A stretch of 64,000 nucleotides of DNA from the NCBI GenBank assembly GCA_965223155.1, contig CBDCVR010000014.1, forward strand, positions 416,001-480,000, read 5' to 3'. The notes below the pieces were generated by a model. The model saw only the letters and a program-made list of their open reading frames with translations, was not told the origin of the DNA and ran no database searches. How positions within the stretch are numbered: position 1 is the stretch's first letter; every line of letters begins with the position of its first letter. This document shows positions 8,847-38,436 of this stretch, piece after piece. The DNA comes from Candidatus Multivoradales bacterium. Its GTDB lineage: Bacteria; Acidobacteriota; Thermoanaerobaculia; Multivoradales; JAHEKO01. The position numbers were made by a program, and so were the translations under genes.

Positions 8847-8863
8847 GGGGCTAGAATCCTACC

Positions 8864-10446: not shown

Positions 10447-10789
10447 TTTCGGGCTCCTTTCGGGCGCTCGGACGAACGGACGGGCTCAGGGTGCTCACGG
10501 AACCGGCTTCCTAACCGGACCGGGCACGGGCCCCGGCAGCCGGAGCGCGATGAAAACGGTTGCCGTCCTCGAGACGGCCGCTCACGATCGATAGTCGGCG
10601 ACTAGCTGCATGCGCCAGCTTCGTAGGCTCGAAGCGATCGTGTGGAAGAGTGCGTGGTAATGATGACGCTCGACTTGAAAACTCGCTGGAATGGGCGGCA
10701 AGCCACCGACAAGCTCGGCCTCTTGCACTGCCCGCAACACGGTGACGAAGCGTAGCACAAGAGACCGCTGTGCTAGCCTGCCGCACTTC

Positions 10790-11851
10790 ATGAAGCGTGC
10801 CGCCAGCGCCCTGCCGCCGATCCGCTTCGAGCCCGTCCTCAAGGACTATCTCTGGGGCGGTACCGCTCTGCGCGACCTTTTCGGCCGGGAGCTTCCGAGT
10901 GCGACCGCGGCCGAGAGCTGGGAGGTGTCGGATCACCCCCACGGCCCCACCCCGGTGCGCGAAGGCGAGCTTCAAGGGGCGACCCTGAATGAGCTCATCG
11001 CGGAGCACGGCACCGAGCTCCTGGGCACGCGCTACGTCGACGCGGCCGCGGCCGGGCGCTTCCCGCTCTTGATCAAGATCCTGGACGCGCGCCGCTGGCT
11101 GTCGGTCCAGGTCCATCCCGGAGACGCCTACGCCCGCGAGCGCGAGGGAGATTCCGGCAAGACCGAGATGTGGATCGTGCTCGACGCCGACCCGGAAGCC
11201 GAGATCATCCTGGGTTTTGCGGAAGCGCTCACCGCCGGCGAATTCAACGAAGCCGTCGCCGCCGATCGCCTGGACGAGGTTCTGCAGCGGCTGCCGGCCA
11301 GGGCCGGAGACGCCTTCTTCGTTCGCTCCGGCTTGATCCATGCGATCGGGCCGGGTCTGGTCATCGCCGAGATCCAGCAATCGAGCGACACCACCTACCG
11401 GGTCCACGACTGGGGCCGTCACGACCGGGACGGCCGGCCGCGCGAGCTCCACTTGCAGCAGGCTCGAGACGTGCTGGACTTCTCCGCCATCCGGCCGGCG
11501 GCCGTGTCTCCGGAGCCGCTCGACTTGCCAGGCGGCGAACTCCTGGTGGATTGTCCCGACTTCCGGGTCGAGCGATACCGCCTGGGCGCCTCGCCCGAAG
11601 ACGAGCGGGCGGTGCTTGCCCGCCGCTACGAGGGTCGCTGCGCCGGCGCCACCTTCGAGATCTGGGGAGTGCTGGACGGCTCCGCGACCCTCGAGTGGGA
11701 CGGCGGCCGGCTCGACCTGGAAGCGGTGGACTGGGTGCTGCTACCGGCGACTCTCGGCGCCTTCGCGATTTCGGCCGAAGGTTCGGACACCGAGGATCGC
11801 GACAGCCCCGCAACGCTGGTTCGCGTCCTCAAGCCCGACGAATCGGGCTAG
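10790..11851 (+). CDS. manA: Mannose-6-phosphate isomerase, class I
   Basis: LWGG, AESWEVSDH, FPLLIKILDA...LSVQVHP, KTEMW, IHAIG, EIQQSSDTTYR, RELH. Confidence 0.9.
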   Translation: MKRAASALPPIRFEPVLKDYLWGGTALRDLFGRELPSATAAESWEVSDHPHGPTPVREGELQGATLNELIAEHGTELLGTRYVDAAAAGRFPLLIKILDARRWLSVQVHPGDAYAREREGDSGKTEMWIVLDADPEAEIILGFAEALTAGEFNEAVAADRLDEVLQRLPARAGDAFFVRSGLIHAIGPGLVIAEIQQSSDTTYRVHDWGRHDRDGRPRELHLQQARDVLDFSAIRPAAVSPEPLDLPGGELLVDCPDFRVERYRLGASPEDERAVLARRYEGRCAGATFEIWGVLDGSATLEWDGGRLDLEAVDWVLLPATLGAFAISAEGSDTEDRDSPATLVRVLKPDESG

Positions 11852-11964: not shown

Positions 11965-12873
11965 GTGACCCAGCTGGCCGACGTGATTCTCTACTACCAT
12001 CGCCCTTCCTTCTTCTTGGACCCGGATTGGTCGCCGGTCCCAACCGGCAGGCGTTGCCGCTACACCGGAGACAAGGCGAGGTTCTTCGAGGCAAAAGCCG
12101 TCCTGTTCGACATCCCGACGCTGACGAGCGAGGAGACCGAGCACCTCGCCAAGATTCGGCTGGCCAAGCCCGAGGGACAGATCTGGGTCGCCTTCTCGCA
12201 AGAGAGCGACCAGTGCTTCCCGCTGCTGAACGACCCGGGTTTCATGGCCCTCTTCGACCTGGAGATGTCGTATCGGCAGACTGCCCAAGTCTGGACACCG
12301 TACGTCAACCAAGAGGTCGCGGCGAGAATCTCCTCCGCCCCGGTACTGCCCAAGCGCCATCTGTGTGCGGCCTTCATTTCCAGTCGAGTCAACCTGAGCC
12401 GGCGTCTCGAACTGCTGGAAGGGCTGATGCAGCACCTACCCATTCACTCGTTCGGCAGCCAACTGCAGAACTCCATCTTGGAAGAGGACCAGGGCAACCC
12501 CCAGTACTCGCAGGCCCGCTACCAGACCAAGCTCCGGACCCTCAGACGCTACCGATACACCATCGCCTTCGAAAACAGCTTGAGCGACGACTACGTCACC
12601 GAGAAGTTCTTCCACCCGCTCATGGCCGGCTCGATCCCCGTCTATCTCGGCGCGTCCAACGTAGCCGACTATGCGCCGGGGAAAGACGCCTTCATCAACG
12701 CAGCGAATTTTCCCCATCCCCGGGAACTCGCCGAGTTCCTACTGGAAGCCGAGGACGCCAAGTACCAGGAGTGGCGAAGCCGGCCCTTGGAGCAGTCCTT
12801 TCTCGACCTCGTGTCTCGAACCACCCAGGAGCCGTTCGACGAACTCTGCGATCTGGTGTTCGGCCGAAAGTAA
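11965..12873 (+). CDS. Glycosyltransferase family 10 (alpha-1,3-fucosyltransferase-like)
   Basis: alpha3-FucT motif YRYTIAFENSLSDDYVTEKFFHPLMAGSIPVYLG. Confidence 0.9.
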   Translation: MTQLADVILYYHRPSFFLDPDWSPVPTGRRCRYTGDKARFFEAKAVLFDIPTLTSEETEHLAKIRLAKPEGQIWVAFSQESDQCFPLLNDPGFMALFDLEMSYRQTAQVWTPYVNQEVAARISSAPVLPKRHLCAAFISSRVNLSRRLELLEGLMQHLPIHSFGSQLQNSILEEDQGNPQYSQARYQTKLRTLRRYRYTIAFENSLSDDYVTEKFFHPLMAGSIPVYLGASNVADYAPGKDAFINAANFPHPRELAEFLLEAEDAKYQEWRSRPLEQSFLDLVSRTTQEPFDELCDLVFGRK

Positions 12874-12917
12874 CCGCGTCCGGCTGGCTCGAAGAGCTCG
12901 AGGCGCGCGCGCAAAGC

Positions 12918-14030
12918 CTATCGGCCCGGCCTGTTGCCAGCGGCACCGGCCTCGGCCAGGACTCGCTTGGCCCGGATTTCAACATTACCCGGGTTCGCGG
13001 CTTCGGCCTTCCGCAACCAGGACAGAGCTCGGCTCCAAGCGCCTTCGACCAAGAAGGTAGCGCCGTAGAGACCCCAGGCAAATTCCCCAAATAGCCTCTT
13101 GTCGTACCCCAGGCCGTGAACGGCCAGGCGCGGGACCTCTTCCGCCAGGAGTTGGTCCAGGAAGAATCGAGCCGCCGTCTGCCGGCCTTCCTCGGAGGCC
13201 AGGCGCGCACCCCACCAAAGCAGCAGGGGATCGCAAGGCGCTCGGTCCCAGCCTTCCCGCCAAAGGTCCGCGGCATCCACCAGTCGCGGACCCTCGGCGG
13301 AGAAGTGCAGATCCAGGAGATCCCCGAAGAGCAAGGCGTCCCCAGCCCGAACCGGCCTTGCCCGCAGGGCCTCCAACCCGCGCCGCCAGGCCGTTTCGCC
13401 TTCGGAATAGGCACCCAGTCCGACTCTGGCCTCCCCCAACGCGTGCCAAAGATAGACGCGCTCGGGATCCAGCTCTACGGCCTGGAGCAGCATCGGCAGG
13501 TTGCGCTCGTGCTTGGCCCGCAGGTCCCCTTCGTACCCGAGGTGCTGGATCGCCAGCGGGACGGGACGACAGCCGAGCTCCCCCGCGGCCATAATCCGCT
13601 CGAGGTCCGGAACCACGGTCTCATGAATGGGACTTCGGAACCGAAGGTCGTCTCGATTGCGAAACAGTCGGAACTCGAGATACGGAGTGAGTCGACTGGA
13701 GGCGGAGAATTCCACCAGGCCGGCGATAAGCGCGCGGTCGGCGAGAACCGGAGCCAGCTCACCGCACCGAATCACCCGCTCATCGGCGTCGAGGTAGAGG
13801 ATCCAATCCTCGGCAGCCTCGTCCAAACCCAGGTTCCGCGGCTTGGAGAAGTCATTCCGCCAGGGCTCGTGCACGACCCGGGCCCCGTGCTCCGCCGCGA
13901 CCTCCACGGAGCGGTCCCGCGAACCGGTATCTACGACGACGATCTCGTTGACAAGCTCCGCAACGGAGCGCAGGCACGCGGCAAGGTGCGCCTCCTCATC
14001 GCGAACGATGAGGACGGCGGAGATCCCCAA
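12918..14030 (-). CDS. GT2 glycosyltransferase with C-terminal TPRs (SunS-like catalytic domain)
   Basis: ISAVLIVRDEE, VVDTGSRD, WRNDFSKPRN, WILYLDADE, IHE, IQHLGY, K.ERN, followed by TPR-like helices. Confidence 0.88.
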   Translation of the reverse strand: MGISAVLIVRDEEAHLAACLRSVAELVNEIVVVDTGSRDRSVEVAAEHGARVVHEPWRNDFSKPRNLGLDEAAEDWILYLDADERVIRCGELAPVLADRALIAGLVEFSASSRLTPYLEFRLFRNRDDLRFRSPIHETVVPDLERIMAAGELGCRPVPLAIQHLGYEGDLRAKHERNLPMLLQAVELDPERVYLWHALGEARVGLGAYSEGETAWRRGLEALRARPVRAGDALLFGDLLDLHFSAEGPRLVDAADLWREGWDRAPCDPLLLWWGARLASEEGRQTAARFFLDQLLAEEVPRLAVHGLGYDKRLFGEFAWGLYGATFLVEGAWSRALSWLRKAEAANPGNVEIRAKRVLAEAGAAGNRPGR

Positions 14031-14042
14031 GCGACGGGGACT

Positions 14043-14195
14043 CTAGGTCGTGTTCGGCTGCGCCGAAGCCGGTCGCGCCATCAAGCCCGACATCGTGAAG
14101 GAGGCCACGAGCGGGGCTACGAAACCGGCCCCAATCGCCTTGCGAATGAAACCGCGCCGCGACTCATCAATGGATTCGAGGATCTTCTCTTGCAT
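14043..14195 (-). CDS. Putative RiPP precursor, 50 aa: MQEKILESIDESRRGFIRKAIGAGFVAPLVASFTMSGLMARPASAQPNTT
   Basis: Translated by hand. RBS AAGGAGG 7 nt before the ATG, own promoter, twin-Arg motif SRRGFI, FxxPxV motif. Located downstream of the PqqD and kinase genes, 12 nt upstream of the GT2-TPR gene. Confidence 0.85.
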   Translation of the reverse strand: MQEKILESIDESRRGFIRKAIGAGFVAPLVASFTMSGLMARPASAQPNTT

Positions 14196-14255
14196 CGAAC
14201 TTCCTCCTTCTCCGGCCTGTCAGTCGGCACTCCGGGATATCCCTAGATTGAGCGG

Positions 14256-14285
14256 AGTATCGCAAACCGGTTTCGCGGCTGTCAA
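14256..14285 (-). promoter_or_regulatory. sigma70 promoter for the small peptide, with a palindrome in the spacer
   Basis: TTGACA (14285-14280), 18 nt, TG-c-GATACT (14261-14256). Palindrome AAACCGGTTT at 14264-14273. Confidence 0.7.
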
Positions 14286-14325
14286 TCAGACGGTCACCCG
14301 GACGGAGCTGAGCCTTTCCGTCGGC

Positions 14326-15162
14326 CTAGCCCCGGGAACTATGGCTTCGGGAGGCATTCTCGAGAGAAGCAATCGCCTCGTCGATTCGGCCCAGAGTCAA
14401 CCGCCAGCCACCGCTTGCCCCCAGGAAGCTCGCCGCGGCCAGCAGGCTCTTTCGCGTCTCGCCCCAACGAAAGGAGTTCCTGAGGAGGTTCTCGATCAAG
14501 TGATGGGGCGGCGCGGGCTCCAACGAGCTCTTACCACCGTGATTCGGGGTGATCGATACCAGCCGATCGATCGGAGCTCGCTTGAGCCTCCACTGAGACC
14601 CAATCCTTCGGGGCGGGACACTCCAGACAACCTCGTCGCCGGAGCCCATGCGGGGCTGGCCGGCCAGAATCGCTCCGAGCCCGGGCACGACCTCGTCGCT
14701 TCCCTTCTTGAGTTGCAGACAACGTGGGAACGCAATCACCTCGCCCCCGGAAAAGAGTGCCAGCTCGTCGCCCTCGACCTCATGCCCCGCACTCAGCAAC
14801 GCGGCGGCCAGCGTCGACTTTCCGGCGTGCTTTGCGCCCAAGATCAGCAGGCGGCAGCCCGCCACCGTTGTCGTCACCCCGTGAAAGACGATCCAACCGG
14901 CCAGAGCCAGGCGCTCGATGGCTTGGCAGTAGGCCCGCTGGTAGAGAATGAAGAGTGCATCCCCGGCCGAAGGGGCGGAATCGCAAAGGTCTCCGGCGCG
15001 CAGGATCTCGAACGGGCCGTCGCCTCGCACCTCGAATCGCAGCAGCTTCTTGGGCTCAAGTGGCTGCTCGGCGACGGTTGCGGCATAGGCCAGGAGCGAC
15101 TCGAGCTCGCGGCTGGCGGTCTCGATCTCAACCTGGCAGCCGAGCAGTTGAAACGAAATCAA
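14326..15162 (-). CDS. HPr-kinase-related P-loop kinase (putative peptide kinase)
   Basis: FHG, Walker A GAKHAGKSTL, GDE, FPRCLQLK; overlaps the PqqD stop codon. Confidence 0.75.
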   Translation of the reverse strand: MISFQLLGCQVEIETASRELESLLAYAATVAEQPLEPKKLLRFEVRGDGPFEILRAGDLCDSAPSAGDALFILYQRAYCQAIERLALAGWIVFHGVTTTVAGCRLLILGAKHAGKSTLAAALLSAGHEVEGDELALFSGGEVIAFPRCLQLKKGSDEVVPGLGAILAGQPRMGSGDEVVWSVPPRRIGSQWRLKRAPIDRLVSITPNHGGKSSLEPAPPHHLIENLLRNSFRWGETRKSLLAAASFLGASGGWRLTLGRIDEAIASLENASRSHSSRG

Positions 15163-15458
15163 TCGGTTTCGGCCGGAACTTCGGACTCGACGGCGACCAG
15201 AATACTCTCGTCCATGAGCTGCTGGACTCCCGCACGGACCTCCTCGACCGGCGTCGCGTCCAACTGAAACAGGTCGGCGACGAGCTTAGGCAGGTCCGAG
15301 GTCGCGCGGGTTCCGTCGCACAGTTCGAAGAGGACCGCCGCGGTCTGGTTCAAGTGGTGAACCCGCTGCGTCTCCGGGAAGAAGATCACCAAGCCATCCT
15401 GGGCGTCATGCACCTCGATACCGTCGCAGCGGCGAAGAAACTCGGGGACGGCTGTCAT
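15159..15458 (-). CDS. PqqD family protein / RiPP recognition element (RRE)
   Basis: DGLVIF....VHHLNQTAAVLFELCDG.....L...VA..F.......V...V.QL....IL. Confidence 0.9.
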   Translation of the reverse strand: MTAVPEFLRRCDGIEVHDAQDGLVIFFPETQRVHHLNQTAAVLFELCDGTRATSDLPKLVADLFQLDATPVEEVRAGVQQLMDESILVAVESEVPAETD

Positions 15459-15471
15459 GCGTCTGCCGATC

Positions 15472-16758
15472 CTAGCACCCAGGCAAGGTGGTTCCCGCTC
15501 GGGCGGCAGCCACCACGGCGGCCAGCTTTTCGCTCACGACCGAGCGCTCGTGGTGGGCTCGAACCCAGCGAAGCGCTCGCTCCGCCTGACGCCGAGCCCC
15601 GTCGCCGCCGGCGATCAGCTCACCGGCGGCGCGCGCCAGGTCCTCGCTGGTAGCGCCGACCCGCGCAAACCGCCGGCCCGCCGGTCCGAGCCCAGCCGAG
15701 CCCTCGGGAGTGGTCACCACGGGAACACCCCAGGCGAAGGCCTCGAGAATCTTGACGTGACTCCCGCCGCCTGCTCGGGTGGGCACTACCGTCGCCGAAG
15801 CCCGTCGGTAGAAGGGAGCGAGATCAGCTACCCAGCCATGCGTCGAGACGCCAGGCGTTCGCGCCAACCGCTCGAGAGCTGCGCGCGGGCCCTTCCCCAC
15901 CAGGTCCACTTGGGTTTCCGGATGGTCCGCGCGAACCATCGGCAAGACAGCGTGGACGAGCCGCTCAGCCGCGTCCAGGTTTGGAAGGTAGTGGAAGTTG
16001 CCGAGCAGAAGCAGATTCTTACCACCCGGCGCACCCGGGTTCTGACTGTCGGCCGGTGGTATCGCGACCGCGTTTTCGATGGCTTCGACCGACTCCAGCC
16101 CGTGTCGGCTTGCGAGGCTCAGCGCGTCCCGTTCGCTAGCGGCAAGGACGCGATCGAACCACGGCAGCACCGCCGAGCCGAAATGTAGATAGGCTGCAGC
16201 GTCCGCGTCCAAGGACCCGGCAAGATCGTCTTCCGAGCGGTCTCTCGAGATGGCTGCAAGGCTCCGCAGGGTCGCGACGTCGTCGTCGTCGGCATCCAAG
16301 ATCCACACCGACGGCCCAGAATGCCGCTGCCGATCGGCCGCCGTGAACCCATCCAGCCCGACCAGCATGCCCGCGAGGTACAGCCTCAACACGTAGAGCG
16401 TGTCGAACCGGCGACCCAGCCGCTCGTCAATGGCGGCGCCCAGCTCCGGTGTGGCGCCTCTCGCCAACTCCGGCAGGGCGCCACAGCGTTCCAACAGCTC
16501 ACGGCTCGCCGGCCGCTCGAGCCAGGCGCGCACCGCTTCTCTGCCGGTCATGGGCTCGAACATCTCGACCCGATCGGCATATTCGGACAGCCAAGACGAG
16601 TCGAACCGATCCCGCCCGGGCTCGGCGACCGGGACGATACCGACCGTCAGACGGTGGGAGCGTGCCAGAGCCACCACGGCCAGAGCCGCCCGCATCGCCA
16701 ATCCGTTGCCGGAGAGGGCCGGGGTGATCGGGGTAAGCAGCAGCCCGCGCGGTGCTAT
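15472..16758 (-). CDS. GT4 glycosyltransferase
   Basis: GNFHYLPNLDA, VPTRAGGGSHVKILEAFAWGVPVVTT. The reading frame extends upstream of the track start (LLTPITPALSGNGLAMRA) to an ATA at 16758 preceded by GGAGG. Confidence 0.85.
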   Translation of the reverse strand: MAPRGLLLTPITPALSGNGLAMRAALAVVALARSHRLTVGIVPVAEPGRDRFDSSWLSEYADRVEMFEPMTGREAVRAWLERPASRELLERCGALPELARGATPELGAAIDERLGRRFDTLYVLRLYLAGMLVGLDGFTAADRQRHSGPSVWILDADDDDVATLRSLAAISRDRSEDDLAGSLDADAAAYLHFGSAVLPWFDRVLAASERDALSLASRHGLESVEAIENAVAIPPADSQNPGAPGGKNLLLLGNFHYLPNLDAAERLVHAVLPMVRADHPETQVDLVGKGPRAALERLARTPGVSTHGWVADLAPFYRRASATVVPTRAGGGSHVKILEAFAWGVPVVTTPEGSAGLGPAGRRFARVGATSEDLARAAGELIAGGDGARRQAERALRWVRAHHERSVVSEKLAAVVAAARAGTTLPGC

Positions 16759-16787
16759 TCTTTGCCTCCTCTCCGAGCCCCGGAACC

Positions 16788-17654
16788 GTGGTCAGAATTC
16801 CTCGCCGTGCGCACTTCGTCTTTGGATTGAAGCGATCTCGGTCCCCGTTCCACTTCCTCCATTATGTTGCCATCGAATCCTGCCGGCAGGTGTTGCGACC
16901 GAACGAGATCTTCTTTCATTACCATCACCTGCCCTTCGGCGAGTTCTGGGACCTGGTTCGTCCCCATCTACACTTGCACAGGGTCCCTCTGGTCGATGAG
17001 GTCCTGGAAACAAACTACGACGAGCGGCTGGTGCCACCCGAGTATCGATACGCCCACCACGCAGATTTCGTCCGCTTGGACGCCTTGATCGAGCACGGCG
17101 GGGTTTACGCCGACATCGATACGGTCTTCGTCAACCCGTTCCCTGAGTCTCTATTCGAGGGGTCTTTCGTGATCGGCCGGGAGCGGCCGGTCCCGGACGA
17201 ACGCACCGGTGAGCTCAAGCCGTCGTTGTGCAATGCCCTGCTGATGGCCGAACCGGGCAGCAAGTTCGCGATCGAATGGCGACGCCGCATGGCCGGCGCT
17301 CTCAACGGCACCTGGAACAACCACGCATGCTTCTTGCCGGAGCGGCTGAGTCGCGAAATGCCTGGCGAGTTGGACGTCGAGCCCGAGGAATCCTTCTTCC
17401 CCGTGCCCTGCACGCAGGAGGGCCTCGAGCGCTTGCTCGAGGGCGGCTGGATCGAACTCGACCATAGCTACTCCGTCCATCTGTGGAGCCATGTCTGGTG
17501 GGATGCCGAGCGCCTGGACTTCAGCCCTCGGCACAGCGGAGACTTCACGTACCAGGCCGTGCGTGAAGGCGGCGGCGGGAGTGCGCTCGAGCGCTTGGCG
17601 CACGCCTACCTTCCGGACCTGGAGGTAGACGACCTGGGACCATCCGTCAGATGA
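16788..17654 (+). CDS. DXD-type glycosyltransferase (GT32/Gly_transf_sug-like)
   Basis: IPRRAHFVFGL, AHHADFVRLDALIEHGGVYADIDTV, LCNALLMAEPGS.F, HLW. Confidence 0.85.
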   Translation: MVRIPRRAHFVFGLKRSRSPFHFLHYVAIESCRQVLRPNEIFFHYHHLPFGEFWDLVRPHLHLHRVPLVDEVLETNYDERLVPPEYRYAHHADFVRLDALIEHGGVYADIDTVFVNPFPESLFEGSFVIGRERPVPDERTGELKPSLCNALLMAEPGSKFAIEWRRRMAGALNGTWNNHACFLPERLSREMPGELDVEPEESFFPVPCTQEGLERLLEGGWIELDHSYSVHLWSHVWWDAERLDFSPRHSGDFTYQAVREGGGGSALERLAHAYLPDLEVDDLGPSVR

Positions 17655-18859
17655 CGGACGCCTTCGGGCTCAAGCTCGTGACGACGACGCCCGGGGGAGG
17701 GTACGGCGATGCCGCCCTCGAATACCTTCGCGGCCTGACCGATCTGGGAATTCCGGTCACCTGGCAGGTAGTGCGGGACGGGCATTGGGGGGCCCCGGCG
17801 AGACGAGTCGACTTGCCGTTCGACCTTCGGCGGAACTCCGCCCGGCTCGCATCGCTCTTCGACCGTTCTATTCCCCACGACACCTTCTTGCTTTGTATCC
17901 CTCCGCCGGCCTGGCATCTACGTTGGCTCCAGCAGGAGGAGCACACGACGCCCTTTGCTGGCGCCACCTGGGAGGCGGATCGCCTGCCGGCGAGTTGGCC
18001 GCCAGTGCTCAACCACTTCAGCACCGTCGTCGTACCTTCCGAGTTCAACCGCTCGGTGTTCGTCGCCAGTGGCGTGCGAGTTCCCGTCGAAGTCGTCCCC
18101 TATTGCGCCCGCGAGGTCCAGCCCGTGCCGGGAGGCCCACCCTGGGGCAGGGTCGCGGACGACGACTTCGTCTTCTACACCCTGGGTTCCTGGACCGCCC
18201 GCAAGGCTATCGAGGAAACGATTCGCGCCTACCTCGGAACGTTCACCGGCGACGATAGGGTCGCGCTCATCGTCAAGACGGGGGCCATCGACTGGATCGC
18301 GATCAAAGGCATGACCGTGGAGGAGAGAACCGAAGGGCCACCCCACCTGGGCACGAGTTGGTGGCAGCTCGCCCAGATCGTGGGCGAGTACGAGAATCCG
18401 GCCAAGATTCACCTCGTCGCCGACAGGTTGCCTCTACGAGAAATCGATCGTCTTCATACCCGGGGGGACTGCTTTGTCTCCTTAACACGCGGCGAGGGTT
18501 GGGGCCTAGGACCCTTCGACGCCGGTCTTTTCGGCAATCCGTCGATCGTGACCGGATGGGGTGGGCAGCTCGACTTCCTGGGGAGCGACTACCCGTTTCT
18601 CGTTGACTACGAGCTCGAATCGACGGCCGACTCTCCCGCGAACGGTTACCTCGATCCACCGCGTCAGATCCGCTGGGCGAAGCCGGACGTCGGGCAGGCC
18701 AGCCGGCTCATGCGTCGGGTCTTCGACGAGCGCCGGCAGGCACGGGAGCTGGGCGCCGAGCTCGGCCGGCGGCTCCGGTCCCGCTACCGGCGGCAGACCG
18801 TCTGCCGCCGCTTGGCCGAGGTGATGAATCTCGCCGTCAGACAACCGGAGGCCCGGTGA
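17651..18859 (+). CDS. GT4 glycosyltransferase
   Basis: WEAD, VVVPSEFN, W..RK, DCFVSLTRGEGWGLGPFDA...G.PSIVTGWGG..DF. Confidence 0.88.
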   Translation: MTDAFGLKLVTTTPGGGYGDAALEYLRGLTDLGIPVTWQVVRDGHWGAPARRVDLPFDLRRNSARLASLFDRSIPHDTFLLCIPPPAWHLRWLQQEEHTTPFAGATWEADRLPASWPPVLNHFSTVVVPSEFNRSVFVASGVRVPVEVVPYCAREVQPVPGGPPWGRVADDDFVFYTLGSWTARKAIEETIRAYLGTFTGDDRVALIVKTGAIDWIAIKGMTVEERTEGPPHLGTSWWQLAQIVGEYENPAKIHLVADRLPLREIDRLHTRGDCFVSLTRGEGWGLGPFDAGLFGNPSIVTGWGGQLDFLGSDYPFLVDYELESTADSPANGYLDPPRQIRWAKPDVGQASRLMRRVFDERRQARELGAELGRRLRSRYRRQTVCRRLAEVMNLAVRQPEAR

Positions 18860-19650
18860 AGACCGTTCTGGTCAATTACGCAACGGGCCCGTTCGCCGGA
18901 TATAGGGCGCTGCTGACTCTGACCGGGCAGCGGGCCGGCTGCGACGATTGCTTGGAGTTCGGCCCCCAGGACCTGGACGCGGAGTTTCGTCGCAGGCACC
19001 GCGAGACCCTCGCCGCTCGCCGCGGCGCCGGCTACTTCCTATGGAAGCCCTACATCTTGGTCCGGGCCTTGCAACGCGTGGCACCCGGAGACGTCCTTTT
19101 CTATTGCGACGCCGGGATTCATTGCGTTCGACCGATCCAGCCGCTCCTCGACCTCCTCGAGGGCGGCTCTTCGGACCTCGTCATTCTGGACGGAGGCTTC
19201 CGCGAGTCACAATACACGAAACGGGATGCGTTCCTCCTGATGGGCTGTGACTCGAGCGAATTCGTCGAGACTCCCCAGAGCTTCGCCGGCGCGTTCTTGT
19301 TGCGCAAGACAGAGTGGGCCGAACGGTTTGCGCGCGAGTTTCTCGCCTATGCCTGCGATGACCGAGTCTTGACCGACCGAGCCAATGTGCTGGGAGAAGA
19401 CGACTACCCGGATTTCATCGAACATCGTCACGATCAATCGATTCTGAGCCTGCTGGCCAAGCGGTACGGCATCTCGTTCACCCCCAATCCGTTTCTGGGC
19501 CAGGGCCTAGTCGAAAGAACCGGCCCCCGCATTCTGAACCACACGCGCCAGGCCTACCCGCTCAAGGACGTGGTTCTCTACTTGCTGGCGCGCGGTGCGT
19601 TGCGGATCGAAGACCTCCCGAGCCTCGAGCGAGCGGTCGGCCATGAGTGA
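18856..19650 (+). CDS. Conserved HRHDQS-motif protein, probable GT-A-like glycosyltransferase
   Basis: RGAGYFLWKPYIL, LFYCDAG, YTKRDAF, HRHDQSILSLL; translationally coupled to the upstream GTs. Confidence 0.65.
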   Translation: MKTVLVNYATGPFAGYRALLTLTGQRAGCDDCLEFGPQDLDAEFRRRHRETLAARRGAGYFLWKPYILVRALQRVAPGDVLFYCDAGIHCVRPIQPLLDLLEGGSSDLVILDGGFRESQYTKRDAFLLMGCDSSEFVETPQSFAGAFLLRKTEWAERFAREFLAYACDDRVLTDRANVLGEDDYPDFIEHRHDQSILSLLAKRYGISFTPNPFLGQGLVERTGPRILNHTRQAYPLKDVVLYLLARGALRIEDLPSLERAVGHE

Positions 19651-19743
19651 TCATGGATCGGCAGTCGCCCTGAGAGAACCTTCCGAGCCGCCTTCCGCTG
19701 AGCTCCCGAGCCGGCTGGCCTCGGTCTCCTCCATGCTCTCTCG

Positions 19744-20952
19744 ATGCCCCGCCTCCTGAACCAAGACTCGAACGCCGCGGTCGAGTGGCTGGGGCGCGCC
19801 TGCGGACGGTTCTTGCAGGCGCGCGAAGGGGCGGCGCCACCCCTGGCTCTTGACGTTGGGGTCGACGCCCTGCAACCTCTAGCACCCGCGCACGGCCTCG
19901 AGCCGCTGCTGCATGGCTTGGTCGCGACCGGCGGCATCGCGCGCGAGACCGTTCCGGCCTCGCTCCGGGAGCGCTGGTTGGCGGACTATTGTCGAACGAC
20001 GGTGGCGAACCGGCGCGCGCTCTCGGAGCTGGAGCGCTTGCTGGACAGTTGCCGCCGGCAGTCCGTCGAGATACTCGTATTCAAGGGACTGGCACACGTC
20101 GCGGGGGTCTACCGGGATCCCGGCTTGCGGCCGATGGTGGACGTGGATCTGCTGTGCCGGCCAGCCGCTCTAGCGGCACTCGAACGGGCATTCGTCGAAG
20201 AGGGTTATGAGCCCGTCGACTGGTCGATCCATCACGCGACCTTCGCGACAAAGGCAGGTCTCCTACGGTTTGAGGTCCATCAGAGCCTCTGGGATTTGAT
20301 CGCAGAAGGTGGCCGTTTTCTCGATGAGGTCTGGCGGTCCCAGACGGTGGCCGAGGTGGACGGTTTTCGTTTCTGTGTTCCTTCGGTCGAGGTCAGCGTA
20401 GTCCTAGACACCGCCCATGCCCTGCAGCACGACCTCGGCCAGGGATTGCGGCAAGCCGTGGATCTCGTCGGCTCCCTGGCGACACCGGGCCTTTCGGTCC
20501 CCCGGCTGGACGCGTTGCTCGGCGAGACAGACCTAAAGCCGGAATTCGTCCGAGTCGCGGGTCTCTATCGCCAGTTTCTGGGCGACGGACTCTTCCCAGA
20601 GGCGCTCGCGATACCCGAGCCGCATCTCTCCGATCGAGAATTCGCGCAACAACGTTGGTCCAGCCTGGCCTTGGACTCCGGGGTTCGTTTCCTGGGAGAG
20701 CTCCGCGCCCGGACGGGCCCCGCCGGCAAGCTGAGACACCTGTGGCGTTTGCTGGTTCGGCCCACCGGCCTCGGCGGCATGGGCGGAATGGGCGGCAGGA
20801 AGATCAGGAATCTCGGCCGCTGGCGCCAGCACCTGGCCAACCTCGCGAAACGCGCTTGGCGCAAGAGCCTGGGCCGGTCTCGGAGCCGGAGCGCCCTGGT
20901 AGGCTCCTGGAAGGCCCAGGTCTACCGCCGACGCGGCCACTCTGGCAGATGA
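19744..20952 (+). CDS. Nucleotidyltransferase family protein (NTP_transf_5-like)
   Basis: VFKG.....VY.DPGLRPMVDVDLL, FEVH. Confidence 0.82.
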   Translation: MPRLLNQDSNAAVEWLGRACGRFLQAREGAAPPLALDVGVDALQPLAPAHGLEPLLHGLVATGGIARETVPASLRERWLADYCRTTVANRRALSELERLLDSCRRQSVEILVFKGLAHVAGVYRDPGLRPMVDVDLLCRPAALAALERAFVEEGYEPVDWSIHHATFATKAGLLRFEVHQSLWDLIAEGGRFLDEVWRSQTVAEVDGFRFCVPSVEVSVVLDTAHALQHDLGQGLRQAVDLVGSLATPGLSVPRLDALLGETDLKPEFVRVAGLYRQFLGDGLFPEALAIPEPHLSDREFAQQRWSSLALDSGVRFLGELRARTGPAGKLRHLWRLLVRPTGLGGMGGMGGRKIRNLGRWRQHLANLAKRAWRKSLGRSRSRSALVGSWKAQVYRRRGHSGR

Positions 20953-21174
20953 TTCTGAGAGCCTCTCCGGAAGACCTGGGGGCCGGCGGTGGCGGCCTCC
21001 GGCGCCCATTCAGAGAGCCATCCAATCGGCGGCCGCGGCACGCCGCTCGCCCCCCATGCCAGACCGAATGCGGGGGCCTACTGGGGTTCCCTTTGGACCG
21101 GCACTTCGATATATTCCGCGCCGGCCGCGTTCCGCGGTCACACCCCCAAACATCAAGCAAGCGAGTCACGAACT

Positions 21175-22887
21175 ATGTCGAATGTTGCGACGCAGGACTT
21201 ACGTCCGCTTCTCGTCTCCCCCGATCAGGCCGAAGAGCTGAAATCCGAGGCAATACATCTCAAGTCCTGGGATCTGAACTTTCAGCAGATCTGGGACAGC
21301 GAGCTGCTCCTGAACGGAGCCTTCTCCCCTCTGGCCGGATACCACACCGAGGCCGACTATCGAGGCGTGCTGGACGGCATGCGCACCGCCGACGGAGCGC
21401 TCTGGCCGATGCCGATCACCCTCGACGTCACCGAAGAGTTCGCCGAAGGGCTGACCCAGGGCGAGCGCGTTGCCCTTCGCCACCCCGAAGGCATGGTCCT
21501 GGCGATCCTGACGGTCTCCGACATCTGGCGCCCGGACGCAGACGAGGAAGCCTCCAAGGTCTTCGGCACCACGAACCCGGACCATCCCGGGGTCTTTCAG
21601 CTCAAGCACGAGACCCATCCCGTGTACCTGGGCGGACGGCTCGAAGGCGTCGAGCTGCCTCCGCACCACACCTACCAGCGCCACCGGCACACGCCGGAGC
21701 AACTGCGGGCCGAGTTCGATCGGCTGGGCTGGAAGCGCATCGTGGCTTTCCAGACCCGGAATCCGATGCACCGCGCGCACGTCGAGCTGGTACAGCGCGC
21801 CGCGCTCGAAAACGACGCGAAGATCCTGATCCATCCGGTCGTCGGACGCACCAGCCCGGGCGACGTGGACTACTTTTCACGGGTGCGCTGCTACGAGGCG
21901 GTGGTCGACCAGCTGCCGCCGCAGGTTGCCAAGCTCAGCCTCTTGCCGCTGGCGATGCGCATGGGCGGTCCGCGCGAGGCACTCTGGCACGCCCTCATCC
22001 GGCGCAACTACGGCTGCACGCATTTCATCGTCGGACGCGACCACGCCGGTCCACGGGACCGGGACGGCAACTCGTTCTACGGCCCCTACGACGCCCAGGA
22101 GCTCGTCAAGCAACATGCCGACGAGACCGGCATCGAGCTGGTTCCCTTCCAGGAGGTCGTCTACTGCCAGGAGCGGGGCGAGTACATGGCCCGCTCGGAG
22201 GTCCCCGAGGACGCCACGATTCTGAATCTCTCGGGCACCGAGTTGCGCCGCCGGCTTCGCGAGGGCGCCGACATTCCCTCCTGGTTCTCGTTTCCGGAGG
22301 TCATCACCTCGTTGCGCCGCCGCTATCCGCCGCGCTCGCGCCAGGGCTACACCATCTTCTTTACCGGCCTTTCAGGGTCCGGCAAGTCCACGGTCGCCCA
22401 GATCCTGATCGCCAAGCTGATGGAGATCGACGATCGGCCGGTGACACTCCTGGACGGCGACATCGTGCGCAAGAACTTGTCGAGCGAGCTGGGCTTTTCG
22501 AAAGAGCACCGCGACCTCAACATCCAGCGCATCGGCTTCGTGGCCAGCGAGATCACCAAGAACCGAGGCGCCGCGGTATGCGCTCCAATCGCGCCCTACG
22601 AGAAGACTCGGCGCCAGGTCCGAGACCTGATCGAGCTCCACGGGGGCTTCGTCGAGGTCCACGTCTCGACACCGCTCGAGGTCTGTGAAGATCGCGACCG
22701 CAAGGGTCTGTACGCCAAGGCACGGGCCGGACTGATCAAGGAATTCACCGGCATCGATGACCCATACGAGGAGCCGGACACTCCCGAGGTCGTGATCGAC
22801 ACCTCGCTCCTGACCGCCGAACGCGCGGCTCTCAAGGTCGTCGACTTCCTGCGCCGGGAAGGCTTCCTCGAGCGCTCCCGCTCCTGA
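21175..22887 (+). CDS. sat: Bifunctional sulfate adenylyltransferase / adenylylsulfate kinase
   Basis: AFQTRNPMHRAH, HFIVGRDHAG; APS-kinase domain FFTGLSGSGKST, LDGD.VR, RDRKGLYAKARAG. Confidence 0.96.
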   Translation: MSNVATQDLRPLLVSPDQAEELKSEAIHLKSWDLNFQQIWDSELLLNGAFSPLAGYHTEADYRGVLDGMRTADGALWPMPITLDVTEEFAEGLTQGERVALRHPEGMVLAILTVSDIWRPDADEEASKVFGTTNPDHPGVFQLKHETHPVYLGGRLEGVELPPHHTYQRHRHTPEQLRAEFDRLGWKRIVAFQTRNPMHRAHVELVQRAALENDAKILIHPVVGRTSPGDVDYFSRVRCYEAVVDQLPPQVAKLSLLPLAMRMGGPREALWHALIRRNYGCTHFIVGRDHAGPRDRDGNSFYGPYDAQELVKQHADETGIELVPFQEVVYCQERGEYMARSEVPEDATILNLSGTELRRRLREGADIPSWFSFPEVITSLRRRYPPRSRQGYTIFFTGLSGSGKSTVAQILIAKLMEIDDRPVTLLDGDIVRKNLSSELGFSKEHRDLNIQRIGFVASEITKNRGAAVCAPIAPYEKTRRQVRDLIELHGGFVEVHVSTPLEVCEDRDRKGLYAKARAGLIKEFTGIDDPYEEPDTPEVVIDTSLLTAERAALKVVDFLRREGFLERSRS

Positions 22888-22900
22888 CCCTTCCGACTCG

Positions 22901-23680
22901 ATGTACGAAGAGATCCTCGAGCGGATCGCGGAGTCGCTGGAAGCGGCACGCGAGGTCCTGGAGCAGTTCACGCCGGGCCGGATCGAAGCTCGGCACAAGG
23001 CCGGCGGTGATCCGGTCACTGAAGCCGACCTGGCGGTCAACGCCGTTCTGGAGCGCATCCTGCCCCGCTCCGGCGAGGCCTGGCTGTCCGAGGAAACCAA
23101 GGACGACCCGTCACGCCTCGAAGCCGAGCGCGTCTGGATCGTGGATCCGATCGACGGCACCAAGGAGTTTGTAACCGGGATTCCGGAGTGGTGCGTGTCG
23201 GTCGGCTACGTAGTCGGCGGCGAGGCTGTTGCCGGCGGCATTCTGAGTCCCTCGACCGACCAGTTGATCCTGGGCTCCCTGGAGTCGGGAGTGACCCTCA
23301 ACGGCGAACCGGTCCGGCCCCGGCCGACGAAAGACCTGGCCGACGCCGTGGTCCTCGCCAGCCGCAGCGAAATCCGGCGCGGCGAATGGGAGCAGTACGC
23401 GGAGAGCGCGTTCACCTTGCAGCCGATGGGCTCGGTGGCTTTCAAGATGGCCCTGGTCGCGGCCGGCGAGGTTGACGCCACCTGGACCCTGGTGCCCAAG
23501 AACGAATGGGACGTGGCGGCTTCCACGGCCCTGGTTCACGCCGCCGGCGGCAAGGTCTTCGTGCCGGGTGCCGGAGCGCCCAGCTTCAACCGGGCCGATC
23601 TGAAGTTTCCCGGCCTCGCCGCACTCGGGCCCGGCACCGAAGAGCTCTTCGGGGACGAGTCCTTCACTCTGCGCCGCTAG
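22901..23680 (+). CDS. cysQ: 3'(2'),5'-bisphosphate nucleotidase
   Basis: PVTEAD, LSEE, WIVDPIDGTKEF, ASRS, MGSVAFK, EWDVAA; adjacent to sat/cysC. Confidence 0.88.
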   Translation: MYEEILERIAESLEAAREVLEQFTPGRIEARHKAGGDPVTEADLAVNAVLERILPRSGEAWLSEETKDDPSRLEAERVWIVDPIDGTKEFVTGIPEWCVSVGYVVGGEAVAGGILSPSTDQLILGSLESGVTLNGEPVRPRPTKDLADAVVLASRSEIRRGEWEQYAESAFTLQPMGSVAFKMALVAAGEVDATWTLVPKNEWDVAASTALVHAAGGKVFVPGAGAPSFNRADLKFPGLAALGPGTEELFGDESFTLRR

Positions 23681-24034: not shown

Positions 24035-24784
24035 TCAGCTCAGCTCGAAGTCGACGACCACCGGCAGATGGTCGCTCGCGACCTTGGAAGCCGCCAGCCG
24101 GCATCTGCGGGCGGCGATGCGCTTGAGCGATCCTCGGTAGTAGACACAATCGAGCGGCCCCCGGGGCGAGAACGAGGGATAGGTCTTGATCGCGGTCGAG
24201 GCCCCGTCCGAGGGGCTCTCGGTGGCGCAGGAAAATCCCGAGACGTTGAGGAAGAACGGCCGCAGGAGCGAGCGCCAGTCGTTGAAGTCGCCCGCGACCA
24301 GGCAGGCTTGGTCCGGAGCCAGGGCGGCAAACTCGTCCGAGCTCGCCAGCAGCCCGACTTGCTGACGCCGTTCGCGCGCCGACAGCCCCAGATGCAGATT
24401 GAAGACGTCGAGCCGATGGGGCGAGCCGCGCCGTTTTTCGATCCAGAGGGTCGTGTGCAAACAGCCGCGCCGCTTCTTGCGCCCCACCGTCAGATCGATG
24501 TTCCGGAACTGGTCGATCGGGTACCGGCTCAGGGTCGCGTTGCCGTACCGTCCCCTCCTGAGCGAGACGTTGTAGCCAGCGGCCCGGTAGCCAAATCCCA
24601 GCTCCTGAGCCAACTCCTCGGCCAGATCCAGGCGTCGAGAGCGAGGCACGCCTTGATCGACCTCCTGGAGCAGCACTACGTCGGCGTCATGGTGCTCGAT
24701 CACACCGGCCACTCGCTCGAGCCGGAAGGACCGATCGACACCGATGGCTCGGTGGATGTTGTAGGTGAGGATCCGGAGCTTCAC
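24035..24784 (-). CDS. Endonuclease/exonuclease/phosphatase family protein
   Basis: ILTYNIH, DVVLLQEVD, NLHLGL, AGDFNDW, LD.VY, ASDHLP. Confidence 0.9.
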   Translation of the reverse strand: MKLRILTYNIHRAIGVDRSFRLERVAGVIEHHDADVVLLQEVDQGVPRSRRLDLAEELAQELGFGYRAAGYNVSLRRGRYGNATLSRYPIDQFRNIDLTVGRKKRRGCLHTTLWIEKRRGSPHRLDVFNLHLGLSARERRQQVGLLASSDEFAALAPDQACLVAGDFNDWRSLLRPFFLNVSGFSCATESPSDGASTAIKTYPSFSPRGPLDCVYYRGSLKRIAARRCRLAASKVASDHLPVVVDFELS

Positions 24785-25275
24785 CGCGCTGGATCCGTGG
24801 CCGTAGCTTCGCTGCCGGCGGCGCCGAACGCGGTCTCGATTCTGGCCGCCAGCTCGTCCCGCGCCACCCGAAAGGCTTCGAGACGCTCCTGCCGGTCCCC
24901 CTCGACGGCGGCGGGGTCGGCGATCGACCAGTGCAGCGAGCGCCGGGCGCTTGGAAACACCGGACAGGACTCGCGAGCGCCGTCACAGACGGTCACCACC
25001 GTCTCGATCGCCTCGTCCAGGAACCGCTCGTAGGTCTTGGAGGTCTGCTCCGAGATGTCGGCGCCCAGCTCGCGCAGGACCTCGATGGCTTCAGAACGAA
25101 CACGGGTGGCGAGGGTCCCGGCGCTGGCCACCTCCCGATGCGGATATTTGTGGCGGAACAGCCCTTCAGCCATCTGCGAGCGCGCGCTATTGTGGGTACA
25201 CAGAAACAGGATCTTGCCAGGCGTCAGGGGACCTCGACCTCCGTGGATCTTCCGGCTAGTAGACTTTCCGGCCAT
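24781..25275 (-). CDS. arsC: Arsenate reductase, LMW-PTP fold
   Basis: FLCTHNSARSQMAEG, SAGT, VTVCD...ESCP.FP, HWSIADP; start codon uncertain. Confidence 0.85.
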   Translation of the reverse strand: MAGKSTSRKIHGGRGPLTPGKILFLCTHNSARSQMAEGLFRHKYPHREVASAGTLATRVRSEAIEVLRELGADISEQTSKTYERFLDEAIETVVTVCDGARESCPVFPSARRSLHWSIADPAAVEGDRQERLEAFRVARDELAARIETAFGAAGSEATATDPAR

Positions 25276-38433: not shown

Positions 38434-38436
38434 GAC

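Follow-up and report, generated by a model that had tools for sequence, protein, structure and literature searches.

A candidate leader-guided glycopeptide pathway built around a conserved small peptide in an acidobacterial genome

A stretch of 64,000 nucleotides from a Candidatus Multivoradales bacterium of the phylum Acidobacteriota (assembly GCA_965223155.1, contig CBDCVR010000014.1, positions 416,001 to 480,000; this whole 64-kb stretch is called the window below) was analysed for a cluster of 12 genes between positions 11965 and 23680, one of which encodes a peptide of 50 amino acids (aa). The cluster has a stand-alone PqqD-family protein, that is, a recognition element (RRE) for peptides that are made by the ribosome and modified after translation (RiPPs), a kinase of the HprK fold, a family 2 glycosyltransferase with a helical domain like tetratricopeptide repeats (GT2-TPR), further glycosyltransferases (GTs) and a nucleotidyltransferase-fold protein of the family NTP_transf_5 (PF14907). 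The gene arrangement is not due to chance, since 47 other loci have the core of the cluster with its order unchanged. We consider it very likely that the peptide gene is functionally linked to the enzymes of the cluster, and quite likely that the peptide is their substrate. It is fairly probable that the genes encode an RRE-dependent, RiPP-like pathway which decorates the small ribosomal peptide in the cytoplasm with phosphate and a variable oligosaccharide, and we lean slightly towards a glycan or phosphoglycan placed at or near an Asn-x-Ser/Thr motif in its tail. Comparative evidence from sequences gives good support to the core of this reading, namely a leader-guided glycopeptide pathway that is as yet uncharacterised. 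An earlier note on this DNA had proposed a glycosylated RiPP system here. The place, strand and family that it gave agree with our inventory for all 12 genes (Table 1), and the small open reading frame (ORF), for which it expected counterparts in homologous loci, does recur there beside PqqD, kinase and GT2-TPR.

Peptide family and acceptor motif

The peptide ORF is preceded by a strong ribosome-binding site, GGAGAAGGAGG, and a sigma-70-like promoter match lies about 60 nt upstream of its start in the 130-nt spacer that follows the kinase gene. This match agrees with the consensus at 10 of 12 positions; the scan gave 2 sites in 5.2 kb as against 0.3 expected from shuffled sequences, and these are consensus matches only. 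The gene occurs as a single copy in the genome and in the 50-aa form only. The leader of its product includes SRRGFIRK, F25-x-x-P28-L-V and an ASA↓Q site; the tail QPNTT (Asn-Thr-Thr) comes next, so that the peptide ends in ASAQPNTT. When 5.8 billion proteins were searched with a profile of 5 such peptides, 172 small ones matched at E ≤0.01, all of them unnamed and none with a Pfam family, and no NCBIfam model covers the family. The motif counts given here were taken on the best 120 of the 172 members.

Roughly the first 40 residues are conserved, while the tail varies and gives 101 distinct cores. The leader holds an acidic stretch, RR (72 of 120) or KR (48 of 120), and a moderately hydrophobic stretch with the anchor P-V-V-x-S/T-F, whose Pro and second Phe are invariant. 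Three residues before the invariant Pro an aromatic residue is found in 111 of the 120 members (Phe in 105, Tyr in 6), and an AxA-like site is present just ahead of the tail in 115 of 117. The tail itself carries a near-invariant Asn (117 of 120) that lies 8 to 24 residues past the anchor, 14 to 16 residues in 86 members, and the position at +2 from this Asn is Ser (56) or Thr (53) in 109 of 117 cases, while the residue between the two is varied (Q, S, M, L, T, I and others). The family consensus is R-P-A-[AS]-A-Q-S-N-x-[ST]. N-x-S/T with x other than Pro was found in 111 of 120 tails; when the tails were shuffled 1000 times, it was found in 37 on average and in 52 at most, a comparison that is not to be read as a probability since the peptides are related. 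Also, N-P-S/T does not occur among the 127 N-x-S/T motifs, though Pro makes up 7% of the tail residues. When the leaders are clustered at 80% identity, 50 of 52 clusters retain the sequon, and at 70% 11 of 12 do; 23 peptides stop exactly at it.

The conserved candidate acceptor positions are the Asn and the hydroxyl residue at +2, where Ser and Thr are equally common. The earlier note had taken the C-terminal Thr as the residue to be modified, but Ser or Thr is C-terminal in only 60 of the 120 members and the feature that is conserved is the internal Asn with Ser/Thr at +2. Ser at −1, which is the residue phosphorylated in the LPP peptides described below, was set aside as a general acceptor, as it precedes the Asn in only 61 of 117 members and is replaced by Pro in the window peptide. 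Two poly-Thr members (P0102 and P0122) have the same leader. In locus L080 (4397-4726) the tail has four tandem GGSNQ repeats in place of the single Asn-x-Ser/Thr, which possibly point to Ser-Asn as a repeated acceptor unit.

Among the 120 listed members, 114 are 85 aa or shorter. A Peptidase_S74 domain follows the tail in L063 (33.6 bits) and L068 (37.1 bits), with a sub-threshold match in L057 (18.2 bits), and domains of about 200 aa that belong to no family follow the same leader in L064, L067 and L071. The Peptidase_S74 (endosialidase chaperone) domain is self-cleaving and begins with S-D-x-R-L-K in L057 (826-1302), L063 (1818-2261) and L068 (417-884), and also in L058, L060 and L066; its cleavage would leave a short peptide like the forms of 50-60 aa. 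A hydrophobic segment with a basic tail is found after VPTLSE-like motifs in L073 (746-1057), L074 (227-538) and L080 (4397-4726) as well as in P0115 and P0119. With tail models, one member matched IPTL-CTERM (E 4.9e-5) and two matched midcut-by-XrtH. Tails of the IPTL-CTERM or XrtH type hint at surface attachment through exosortase-type sorting.

Gene order and distribution

A scan with the kinase profile, using one genome per species, gave 39 loci. In the four loci with the closest kinases, which come from metagenome-assembled genomes (MAGs) of a Pseudomonadota member, an Ilumatobacteraceae member, a Mesorhizobium and a Devosia, a small ORF is present in the same place in all four, with the order PqqD (displaced in L003), kinase, small ORF and GT2-TPR, and with PF14907 next wherever the DNA continues. 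The remaining 35 loci (L005-L039), with more distant kinases, have no member of the peptide family, which is therefore seen only beside close kinase relatives (4 of 39 kinase loci). More distant kinase relatives are also found near PF14907 genes in L006, L009, L015, L016 and L021. A metagenome scan with a pattern from a 15-row alignment of the peptide added 43 loci (L040-L082), giving 47 related loci in all.

In these loci the GT2-TPR gene is next downstream of the peptide in 29 of the 30 cases with at least 700 nt of room, the exception being L069, whose peptide is found upstream of the operon. The gene upstream of the peptide is the kinase in 21 of 28 loci, or 22 when L040 is counted, in which ORF boundaries hide the kinase; L081 has no recognised gene at this place. 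PF14907 lies beside GT2-TPR in 11 of the 13 loci that have room for it, and the GT4-type gene GT4a is directly upstream in 11 of 18. When only the 15 loci of 8 kb or longer are considered, PqqD and the kinase are present in 15 each, GT2-TPR in 14, GT4 in 13 and PF14907 in 11. The other transferases vary in the same 15 loci: Anp1 and Mannosyl_trans3 are found in 6 each, GT32 in 4, a second GT4 in 3, an FkbM methyltransferase in 2 and GT10 in 1. Homologs of the GT32-like gene of the window are present in L001, L002, L040 and L075, those of its second GT4 gene (GT4b) in L001 (two), L040, L071 and L075, and a GT10 gene is also present in L078. The minimal locus L002 retains GT2-TPR and a GT32-like gene. 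Tandem peptide genes, two to four in number, occur in 8 of the 47 loci. None of the 47 has sat/cysC, cysQ, the HRHDQS protein, the mannose-6-phosphate-isomerase-like gene or the GDP-mannose dehydratase.

The carriers are records of Alpha- and Gammaproteobacteria (Pseudomonadota), Actinomycetota and Acidobacteriota, with a locus G+C of 0.53-0.71. One carrier that is in culture is Phreatobacter aquaticus (peptide WP_137101127.1). In a survey of the phylum of the window, profile matches were found in 3 of 301 genomes, of which 2 are true carriers. The third (G248) was rejected: the protein matched there has 412 aa and a Tat-type signal but is unrelated, and its gene shows no synteny. Among the searched genomes of the same genus, family or order no carrier was found. 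The system is thus rare and patchy. It may be added that L050 holds, 3 kb from its first set, a second one (5869-10574) of PqqD, a 337-aa protein with no assigned family, GT2 and PF14907.

Enzymes of the cluster

The earlier note had described the GT2 enzyme as SunS-type, and this is borne out by the fold. The best NCBIfam match of GT2-TPR is SunS (TIGR04195), with 51.8 bits against a cut-off of 350, and its best solved relatives by sequence are GmaR (2.4e-18) and SunS (6e-13). A model from 22 sequences reached a predicted local distance difference test (pLDDT) value of 92.9, and its six best fold matches in the PDB are all SunS/ThuS structures (E 3e-17 to 1e-15; TM-score relative to the query, TMq, 0.62-0.64; 291 columns at 3.0 Å for 7msp), the next being TarS with E 2e-8 and TMq 0.38. 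GT2-TPR is hence SunS/ThuS-like by modelled fold and is predicted to be a peptide glycosyltransferase.

The kinase model, from 64 sequences, has a pLDDT of 96.8. In a Foldseek search it matched phosphoenolpyruvate (PEP) carboxykinases (E ~1e-6, TMq ~0.5) and the catalytic domains of HprK/P (E ~1e-5, TM-score relative to the target, TMt, ~0.5), whereas its sequence profile gave P-loop-level matches only against PDB sequences. G114, D132 and R147 are invariant in the 64 relatives. The kinase family comprises 1490 representatives at E ≤0.001 and 77 at 1e-30, and five fusions were found, namely to GT4 (two, P0168 and P0150), to Mannosyl_trans3, to GT2/GT7C and to a methyltransferase.

By profile, the PqqD protein matched the lasso RRE TfuB1 best in the PDB (E 0.0028), with PqqD itself coming next. 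The earlier note had suggested complex prediction as a check on binding. The prediction of PqqD with the peptide scored 0.48, with 0.00 for the best of 3 controls; our own alignments were used, for which the benchmark counts hold roughly. In that benchmark the mark was reached by 116 of 157 solved complexes and by 2 of 215 mismatched pairs, and passing scores of 0.60 or less comprise only 18 of the 157 solved complexes and both of the mismatches. The runs agree in at least 92% of the contacts, with a partner pLDDT of at least 65. As RRE-leader complexes are among the solved structures, the pass may reflect likeness to them.

PF14907 is the Pfam family of LppN and PbaN, as given in the supplement of the LPP paper (PMC13381572), and the window protein had no PDB match by sequence at E ≤1. 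Of the genes listed in the earlier note, GT2-TPR and GT4a form a core that stands as part of the system, and GT10, the HRHDQS protein, GT32 and the second GT4 are variable accessories. GT4b gave only sub-threshold matches to GT4 families in the Pfam scan; its look-alikes in the Atlas are GT4 proteins at 0.99, which is a lead only, and its PDB match is B736L (E 0.014). The HRHDQS protein has no Pfam match even at E 5, and its nearest named Atlas clusters, again a lead only, are GT34-, DUF1647- and TOD1-like. Sulfation, which had also been put forward, is for now rejected as a part of the conserved system as judged from gene content: sat/cysC and cysQ are in 0 of the 47 related loci and the window cluster has no sulfotransferase, its unassigned proteins giving no match to sulfotransferase families even at E 5. 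In L080 there is a Sulfotransfer_3 match just above the cut-off (27.4 against 27).

Six loci (L003, L004, L043, L059, L078 and L080), which include the Mesorhizobium and Devosia MAGs, combine Anp1 (GT62) with Mannosyl_trans3 (GT71), sometimes together with GT32 and FkbM methyltransferase genes. Such families build the outer mannan chain on N-glycans in the yeast Golgi.

Absent functions and export

In agreement with the earlier note, Pfam scans covering the called genes of all 64 kb gave no match to a lasso cyclase, B2 protease, YcaO or peptidase-ABC exporter (ATP-binding cassette, ABC), and the only radical S-adenosylmethionine (SAM) protein is ThiC, which lies outside the cluster at 32384-34213. 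The window scans also gave no flippase, polymerase, priming transferase or outer-membrane export genes, and Wzx, Wzy, a priming transferase, an ABC exporter and a protease were found neither in the window nor in the related loci. No cluster protein has a predicted membrane segment, that is, no 19-residue window reaches a Kyte-Doolittle mean (KD19) of 1.6; the maximum in the window peptide is 1.59. In the whole genome, which is 98.66% complete, STT3/PglB (PF02516) and GT41 (PF13844) had no match.

The consensus of a twin-arginine translocation (Tat) signal is an RR motif, a moderately hydrophobic stretch and an AxA site. The window peptide has such a layout in its SRRGFIRK motif, its moderate KD19 and its ASA↓Q site, but the family profile also catches the signal of the unrelated 412-aa protein of G248. 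A peptide glycosylated in the cytoplasm could hardly pass Sec, which makes Tat the natural candidate for export. TatC is present in the window genome (225 bits) and in all 5 of the other carriers tested, but also in 11 of 14 control genomes. The Tat-like leader and the lack of exporter genes agree with the Tat export assumed in the earlier note, while the sub-threshold Tat models and the frequent KR leave export as a supposition; we regard export via Tat as possible, at somewhat less than even chances.

Proposed pathway

From the gene families, the modelled folds of the kinase and of GT2-TPR, the conservation of the peptide and its motifs and the synteny, all of which are observations, we infer the chemical steps, the acceptor residue, the order of the steps and the export route as follows. 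The stand-alone PqqD protein would bind the [F/Y]xxP-V-V stretch of the leader and present the short tail to the enzymes; an RRE-binding motif in the leader would explain why the core of this 'signal peptide' is so conserved. The SunS/ThuS-like GT2-TPR would glycosylate the tail at or next to Asn-x-Ser/Thr and the HprK-fold kinase would phosphorylate a neighbouring Ser or Thr, to the phosphate of which the PF14907 protein may add a hexose, by analogy with PsmN in pseudomycoidin. The glycan would then be extended by GT4, GT32-like, GT10 and other soluble glycosyltransferases, the set of which differs from locus to locus. The leader looks like a Tat signal with an AxA site, and a dedicated exporter or protease is not encoded. 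For this reason the glycopeptide, once finished, may leave via Tat and be cut by signal peptidase I, which in the window would leave the glycan on a stub of about 5 residues (QPNTT). Since the genome has no STT3 or GT41, either GT2-TPR or the kinase would have to read Asn-x-Ser/Thr. The loci L056 and L071-L074, all of them short, have PqqD, peptide and GT2-TPR with no kinase seen nearby, which suggests that glycosylation by GT2-TPR is the primary step.

In a bolder version, which we hold to be rather unlikely, Asn-x-Ser/Thr is a true N-glycosylation sequon that is read in the cytoplasm by the RRE-guided, SunS-like GT2-TPR. Bacteria would then have a third way of making Asn-linked glycans, one that needs neither PglB-type enzymes nor the GT41 N-glycosyltransferases (NGTs), with elaboration by soluble transferases of Golgi-type families (GT32, GT62 Anp1, GT71 and GT10) and exit via Tat, and its product would be the first RiPP-like one with a Tat-type leader that doubles as an RRE docking site.

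Several observations weigh against the pathway or parts of it. The loci L040-L082 were chosen through the peptide and are a biased sample, so that they show the surroundings of the peptide and not how frequent the enzymes are without it. The peptide directly follows PqqD in 5 of 28 loci (L056, L071, L073, L080 and L082), the kinase being elsewhere in L080 and not seen in the other four, which are short; hence the kinase step is perhaps not shared by all. In L040 and L080 no PF14907 gene was seen beside GT2-TPR. Nine of the 120 members have no sequon, though 8 of these 9 still have the Asn, and the tail of the same-phylum carrier G009 has no Asn at all. Some members have long C-terminal domains, whereby the module also serves proteins and not only short peptides. 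As to export, the Tat signal model TIGR01409 gives 10.3 bits with the window peptide against a cut-off of 16.7, only 19 of 120 members match Tat signal models at E ≤1, and KR stands in place of RR in 48. The predicted PqqD-peptide complex gives weak support for binding and speaks at most for likeness. LppN, for its part, had no detectable activity in a heterologous host (PMC13381572).

If the pathway is true, there would be a widespread family of ribosomal glycopeptides outside Bacillota with at least 172 precursors, joining three subjects that have until now been treated separately: the kinase and PF14907 pair of lasso peptides and LPPs, the peptide glycosyltransferases of glycocin type, and general protein export. 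Enzymes that have no established products even in LPP, notably PF14907, would gain a definite substrate whose acceptor motif is short and sharply defined, and the question arises whether Asn or the adjacent Ser/Thr is modified in the cytoplasm without any known N-glycosylation enzyme. For glyco-engineering, too, a soluble, modular and leader-guided system that glycosylates a 5-residue tag would be of practical value.

Comparison with known systems

Among known systems, the family of linear polyphosphorylated peptides (LPP) from Bacillota (Popov et al., Nat Commun 2026, PMC13381572) comes closest. The LPP clusters (LppA/K/B/S/D/N) combine a stand-alone RRE with an HprK-like kinase and a PF14907 protein, and have a SipW-like signal peptidase and an MsbA-like exporter besides. 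They are located in glycosyltransferase-rich capsule loci, their precursors have a conserved N-terminus and the family is called restricted to Bacillota by its authors. The LPP kinase polyphosphorylates Ser3 of a core starting with AQSNWK, and the stand-alone RREs of lasso and LPP systems bind a [Y/W]xxPx[L/V/I/F/A] motif (PMC13381572). The aromatic-x-x-Pro-x-Val stretch of the leaders studied here resembles this motif.

The cluster of the window is like LPP in having a stand-alone RRE, an HprK-like kinase and PF14907 in one cluster with no lasso cyclase. Its precursors share the conserved N-terminus with variable C-terminus, the one to several copies per cluster, the lengths of 35-200 aa and the aromatic-x-x-Pro motif of the leader, and also alike are the glycosyltransferase-rich setting and the patchy distribution. 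The LPP core AQSN, with its phosphorylated Ser, is to be compared with the A-Q-S-N-x-S/T consensus here. In contrast to LPP, Pfam scans of the window and the related loci found no S24/S26 peptidase and hence no SipW-like signal peptidase, and there is no ABC transporter in or beside the cluster or in the related loci that would correspond to the MsbA-like exporter. Also, the leader here is Tat-like, with Phe for Tyr, and has only the aromatic-x-x-P-x-V part (F in 105 and Y in 6 of 120) of the LPP motif YxxPxVLxHQxIxFETxxS without the rest. The system here has a core of SunS-like GT2-TPR and GT4 and a near-invariant Asn with Ser/Thr at +2, and its carriers are Pseudomonadota, Actinomycetota and Acidobacteriota as against Bacillota for LPP.

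The C-terminal Ser of pseudomycoidin is phosphorylated by PsmK, and PsmN is then needed for one or two hexoses on the phosphate (+162 and +324 Da), as described by Zyubko et al. (Chem Sci 2019, PMC6993621). Paeninodin and pseudomycoidin share with the window an HprK-like kinase, a nucleotidyltransferase-family protein and a stand-alone RRE. The pairing of kinase and nucleotidyltransferase, which the earlier note had compared with pseudomycoidin, is present as described and is also known from LPP (PF14907). The window differs from these two lasso peptides in having no macrolactam synthetase, no B2 protease (none in the 64 kb) and no ABC exporter, and in an acceptor that is not generally the C-terminal residue (Ser/Thr in 60 of 120). 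The cluster is thus not of the lasso type, having neither cyclase nor B2 protease.

The likeness to glycocins lies in the GT2 catalytic domain followed by a helical TPR-like domain, in the SunS/ThuS fold and in the gene adjoining a small precursor gene. Glycocin precursors are Cys-rich helical hairpins with a double-glycine leader and are exported by a SunT-type exporter. By contrast, the 51.8 bits of GT2-TPR stand against an equivalog cut-off of 350 for SunS, the window peptide has neither Cys nor a GG site, and a C39-ABC (SunT-type) exporter and thiol-disulfide oxidoreductases are absent. To our knowledge, RRE, kinase and PF14907 are not found in glycocin clusters, whereas all three are present here. 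Since a Cys hairpin precursor and a SunT exporter are lacking, it is not a glycocin cluster. The HPr-rel-A system (TIGR04352 kinase and TIGR04353 PqqD family chaperone) is similar in that a PqqD-family protein adjoins an HprK-related kinase, but the window proteins score far below what the curated models require (37.4 as against 200 bits, and 17.1 as against 35).

Taken as a whole, an RRE, kinase and PF14907 tailoring module is joined here to a glycocin-type transferase, with a precursor family and an acceptor motif that are so far unreported. The earlier note had called the system undescribed. No description of it was found in the published full texts (subscription-only papers being outside the coverage), while a related cyclase-free family, LPP, was published in 2026 (PMC13381572).

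Alternative explanations

One alternative, which we consider unlikely, makes the polysaccharide (a mannan-like one, for example) the product and the peptide its carrier: the small hydrophobic peptide would replace the lipid carrier as a primer on the inner face of the membrane for soluble transferases and may stay membrane-anchored after translocation. The mature stub has only about 5 residues in the window and yet 5-6 transferases are encoded, the set varies with the locus as it does in surface-glycan loci (Anp1 and Mannosyl_trans3 in 6 of 15 each, GT32 in 4 of 15, FkbM and GT10), lipid-carrier genes are absent and a few members end in IPTL-CTERM or exosortase-type tails, all of which would fit such a carrier. 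The AxA-like site before the Asn in 115 of 117 members, however, fits cleavage, tandem and diverging precursor copies are typical of peptide products, and the stretch is only moderately hydrophobic (maximum KD19 1.59). The same leader also heads Peptidase_S74 domains, domains of about 200 aa (L064, L067 and L071) and sorting tails (L073, L074 and L080), and the best PDB sequence match of GT2-TPR is GmaR, a protein glycosyltransferase that acts on flagellin. Leader and Asn-x-Ser/Thr could on this ground be an N-terminal module by which secreted or surface proteins are singled out for glycosylation in the cytoplasm, and the 50-aa forms would be minimal or decoy ones. This is improbable in our view, as 114 of the 120 listed members have 85 aa or fewer, 23 end exactly at the sequon and the window genome has the 50-aa form only.

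It could also be argued that PqqD, kinase and PF14907 make a linear polyphosphorylated peptide as in LPP, with the glycosyltransferases being part of a polysaccharide locus next to it, a situation that is suspected for LPP clusters in Bacilli. LPP clusters do sit in glycosyltransferase-rich capsule loci, with phosphorylation alone shown there (PMC13381572), and the LPP core AQSNWK with its phosphorylated Ser3 is close to the AQSN consensus. Yet GT2-TPR, with its peptide-glycosyltransferase fold, directly follows the peptide in 29 of 30 loci, four of the five kinase fusions are to glycosyltransferases and one is to a methyltransferase, the minimal locus L002 keeps GT2-TPR and a GT32-like gene, and no polysaccharide export or polymerase genes are nearby, which makes a phosphopeptide-only system highly improbable. 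An ordinary exopolysaccharide or lipopolysaccharide (LPS) locus with an incidental small ORF would account for the many glycosyltransferases and for the GDP-mannose dehydratase and mannose-6-phosphate-isomerase-like gene within 6 kb, but is almost certainly wrong and is largely refuted already by the peptide family and its synteny: the protein of the small ORF is conserved across phyla at a G+C of 0.53-0.71, RRE and kinase are in 15 of the 15 long loci, and genes for Wzx, Wzy, Wza and a priming transferase as well as membrane proteins are missing. Loci that use a lipid carrier would differ from the cluster in having a priming transferase, a flippase or ABC exporter and a polymerase, none of which is seen here, and no cluster protein has a membrane segment.

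Gene inventory and neighbourhood of the locus

The source genome has 4.0 Mb in 15 contigs with a G+C of about 67%. Table 1 gives the features of the locus, in which the minus-strand genes (GT4a, PqqD, kinase, peptide and GT2-TPR) are divergent from the plus-strand run that goes from the GT32-like to the CysQ-like gene. GT2-TPR starts 12 nt past the stop of the peptide ORF. As the family match of sat/cysC begins at residue 63, its true start is probably near 21175.

Table 1. Features of the cluster, in order of position in the window
Feature	Position	Strand	Family match or remark
GT10 fucosyltransferase-family gene	11965-12873	+	Glyco_transf_10 88.8 bits, Glyco_tran_10_N 47.2 bits; convergent on GT2-TPR; accessory
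GT2-TPR	12918-14030	-	Glycos_transf_2 63.4 bits; predicted peptide glycosyltransferase
Precursor peptide gene, 50 aa	14043-14195	-	MQEKILESIDESRRGFIRKAIGAGFVAPLVASFTMSGLMARPASAQPNTT
Sigma-70-like promoter match (TTGACA, 18 nt, GATACT, with TG)	14256-14285	-	Kinase-peptide spacer
HprK/PEPCK-fold (PEPCK, PEP carboxykinase) P-loop kinase, 278 aa	14326-15162	-	Hpr_kinase_C 22 bits and TIGR04352 37.4 bits, both sub-threshold
Stand-alone PqqD-family RRE, 99 aa	15159-15458	-	PF05402 33.6 bits
GT4-type glycosyltransferase GT4a	15472-16701	-	Glyco_trans_1_4 75.5 bits
GT32-like glycosyltransferase (DXD sugar-binding region)	16752-17654	+	Gly_transf_sug PF04488 34.3 bits; accessory
Divergent GT4-like protein GT4b, 402 aa	17651-18859	+	Below all Pfam cut-offs; accessory
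HRHDQS protein, 264 aa	18856-19650	+	No Pfam family; possibly GT-A-like
NTP_transf_5 (PF14907) nucleotidyltransferase-fold protein	19744-20952	+	121.7 bits
sat/cysC (3'-phosphoadenosine-5'-phosphosulfate, PAPS, synthesis)	20989-22887	+	888 bits
CysQ/inositol-monophosphatase-like phosphatase	22901-23680	+	Adjoins sat/cysC

Third-position G+C is 0.77-0.80 in the genes from 12918 to 20952 and 0.82-0.87 in most of the flanking genes. Locus L002 adjoins a phage-type integrase. The lower third-position G+C, the 2 carriers among 301 genomes of the phylum and the integrase of L002 are consistent with horizontal transfer.

At most 6 kb upstream of GT10 lie genes for a GDP-mannose 4,6-dehydratase and a type I phosphomannose-isomerase-like protein (6492-7556 and 10691-11851), which are separated from GT10 by infC and unrelated genes; they could supply GDP-sugars, though they are without counterpart in the related loci. 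On the other side of the cluster, phosphatase genes are present on the minus strand at 24035-25422 (Exo_endo_phos and a low-molecular-weight phosphatase). Phosphatase or phosphodiesterase genes recur in the related loci, with PhoX amid the glycosyltransferases of L001 (2425-3939), a dual-specificity phosphatase in L040 (1987-2760) and a type I phosphodiesterase adjoining PF14907 in L063 (5096-6757), and such neighbours may be relevant to phosphate-linked sugars. Farther along the window, the minus-strand frame at 34300-39204 has 1634 aa, with CarboxypepD_reg, Plug and an outer-membrane barrel in its C-terminal 1000 residues. Since the N-terminal part of this frame overlaps plus-strand genes at 37438-39342, the true gene, which is like that of a TonB-dependent receptor, is probably shorter.

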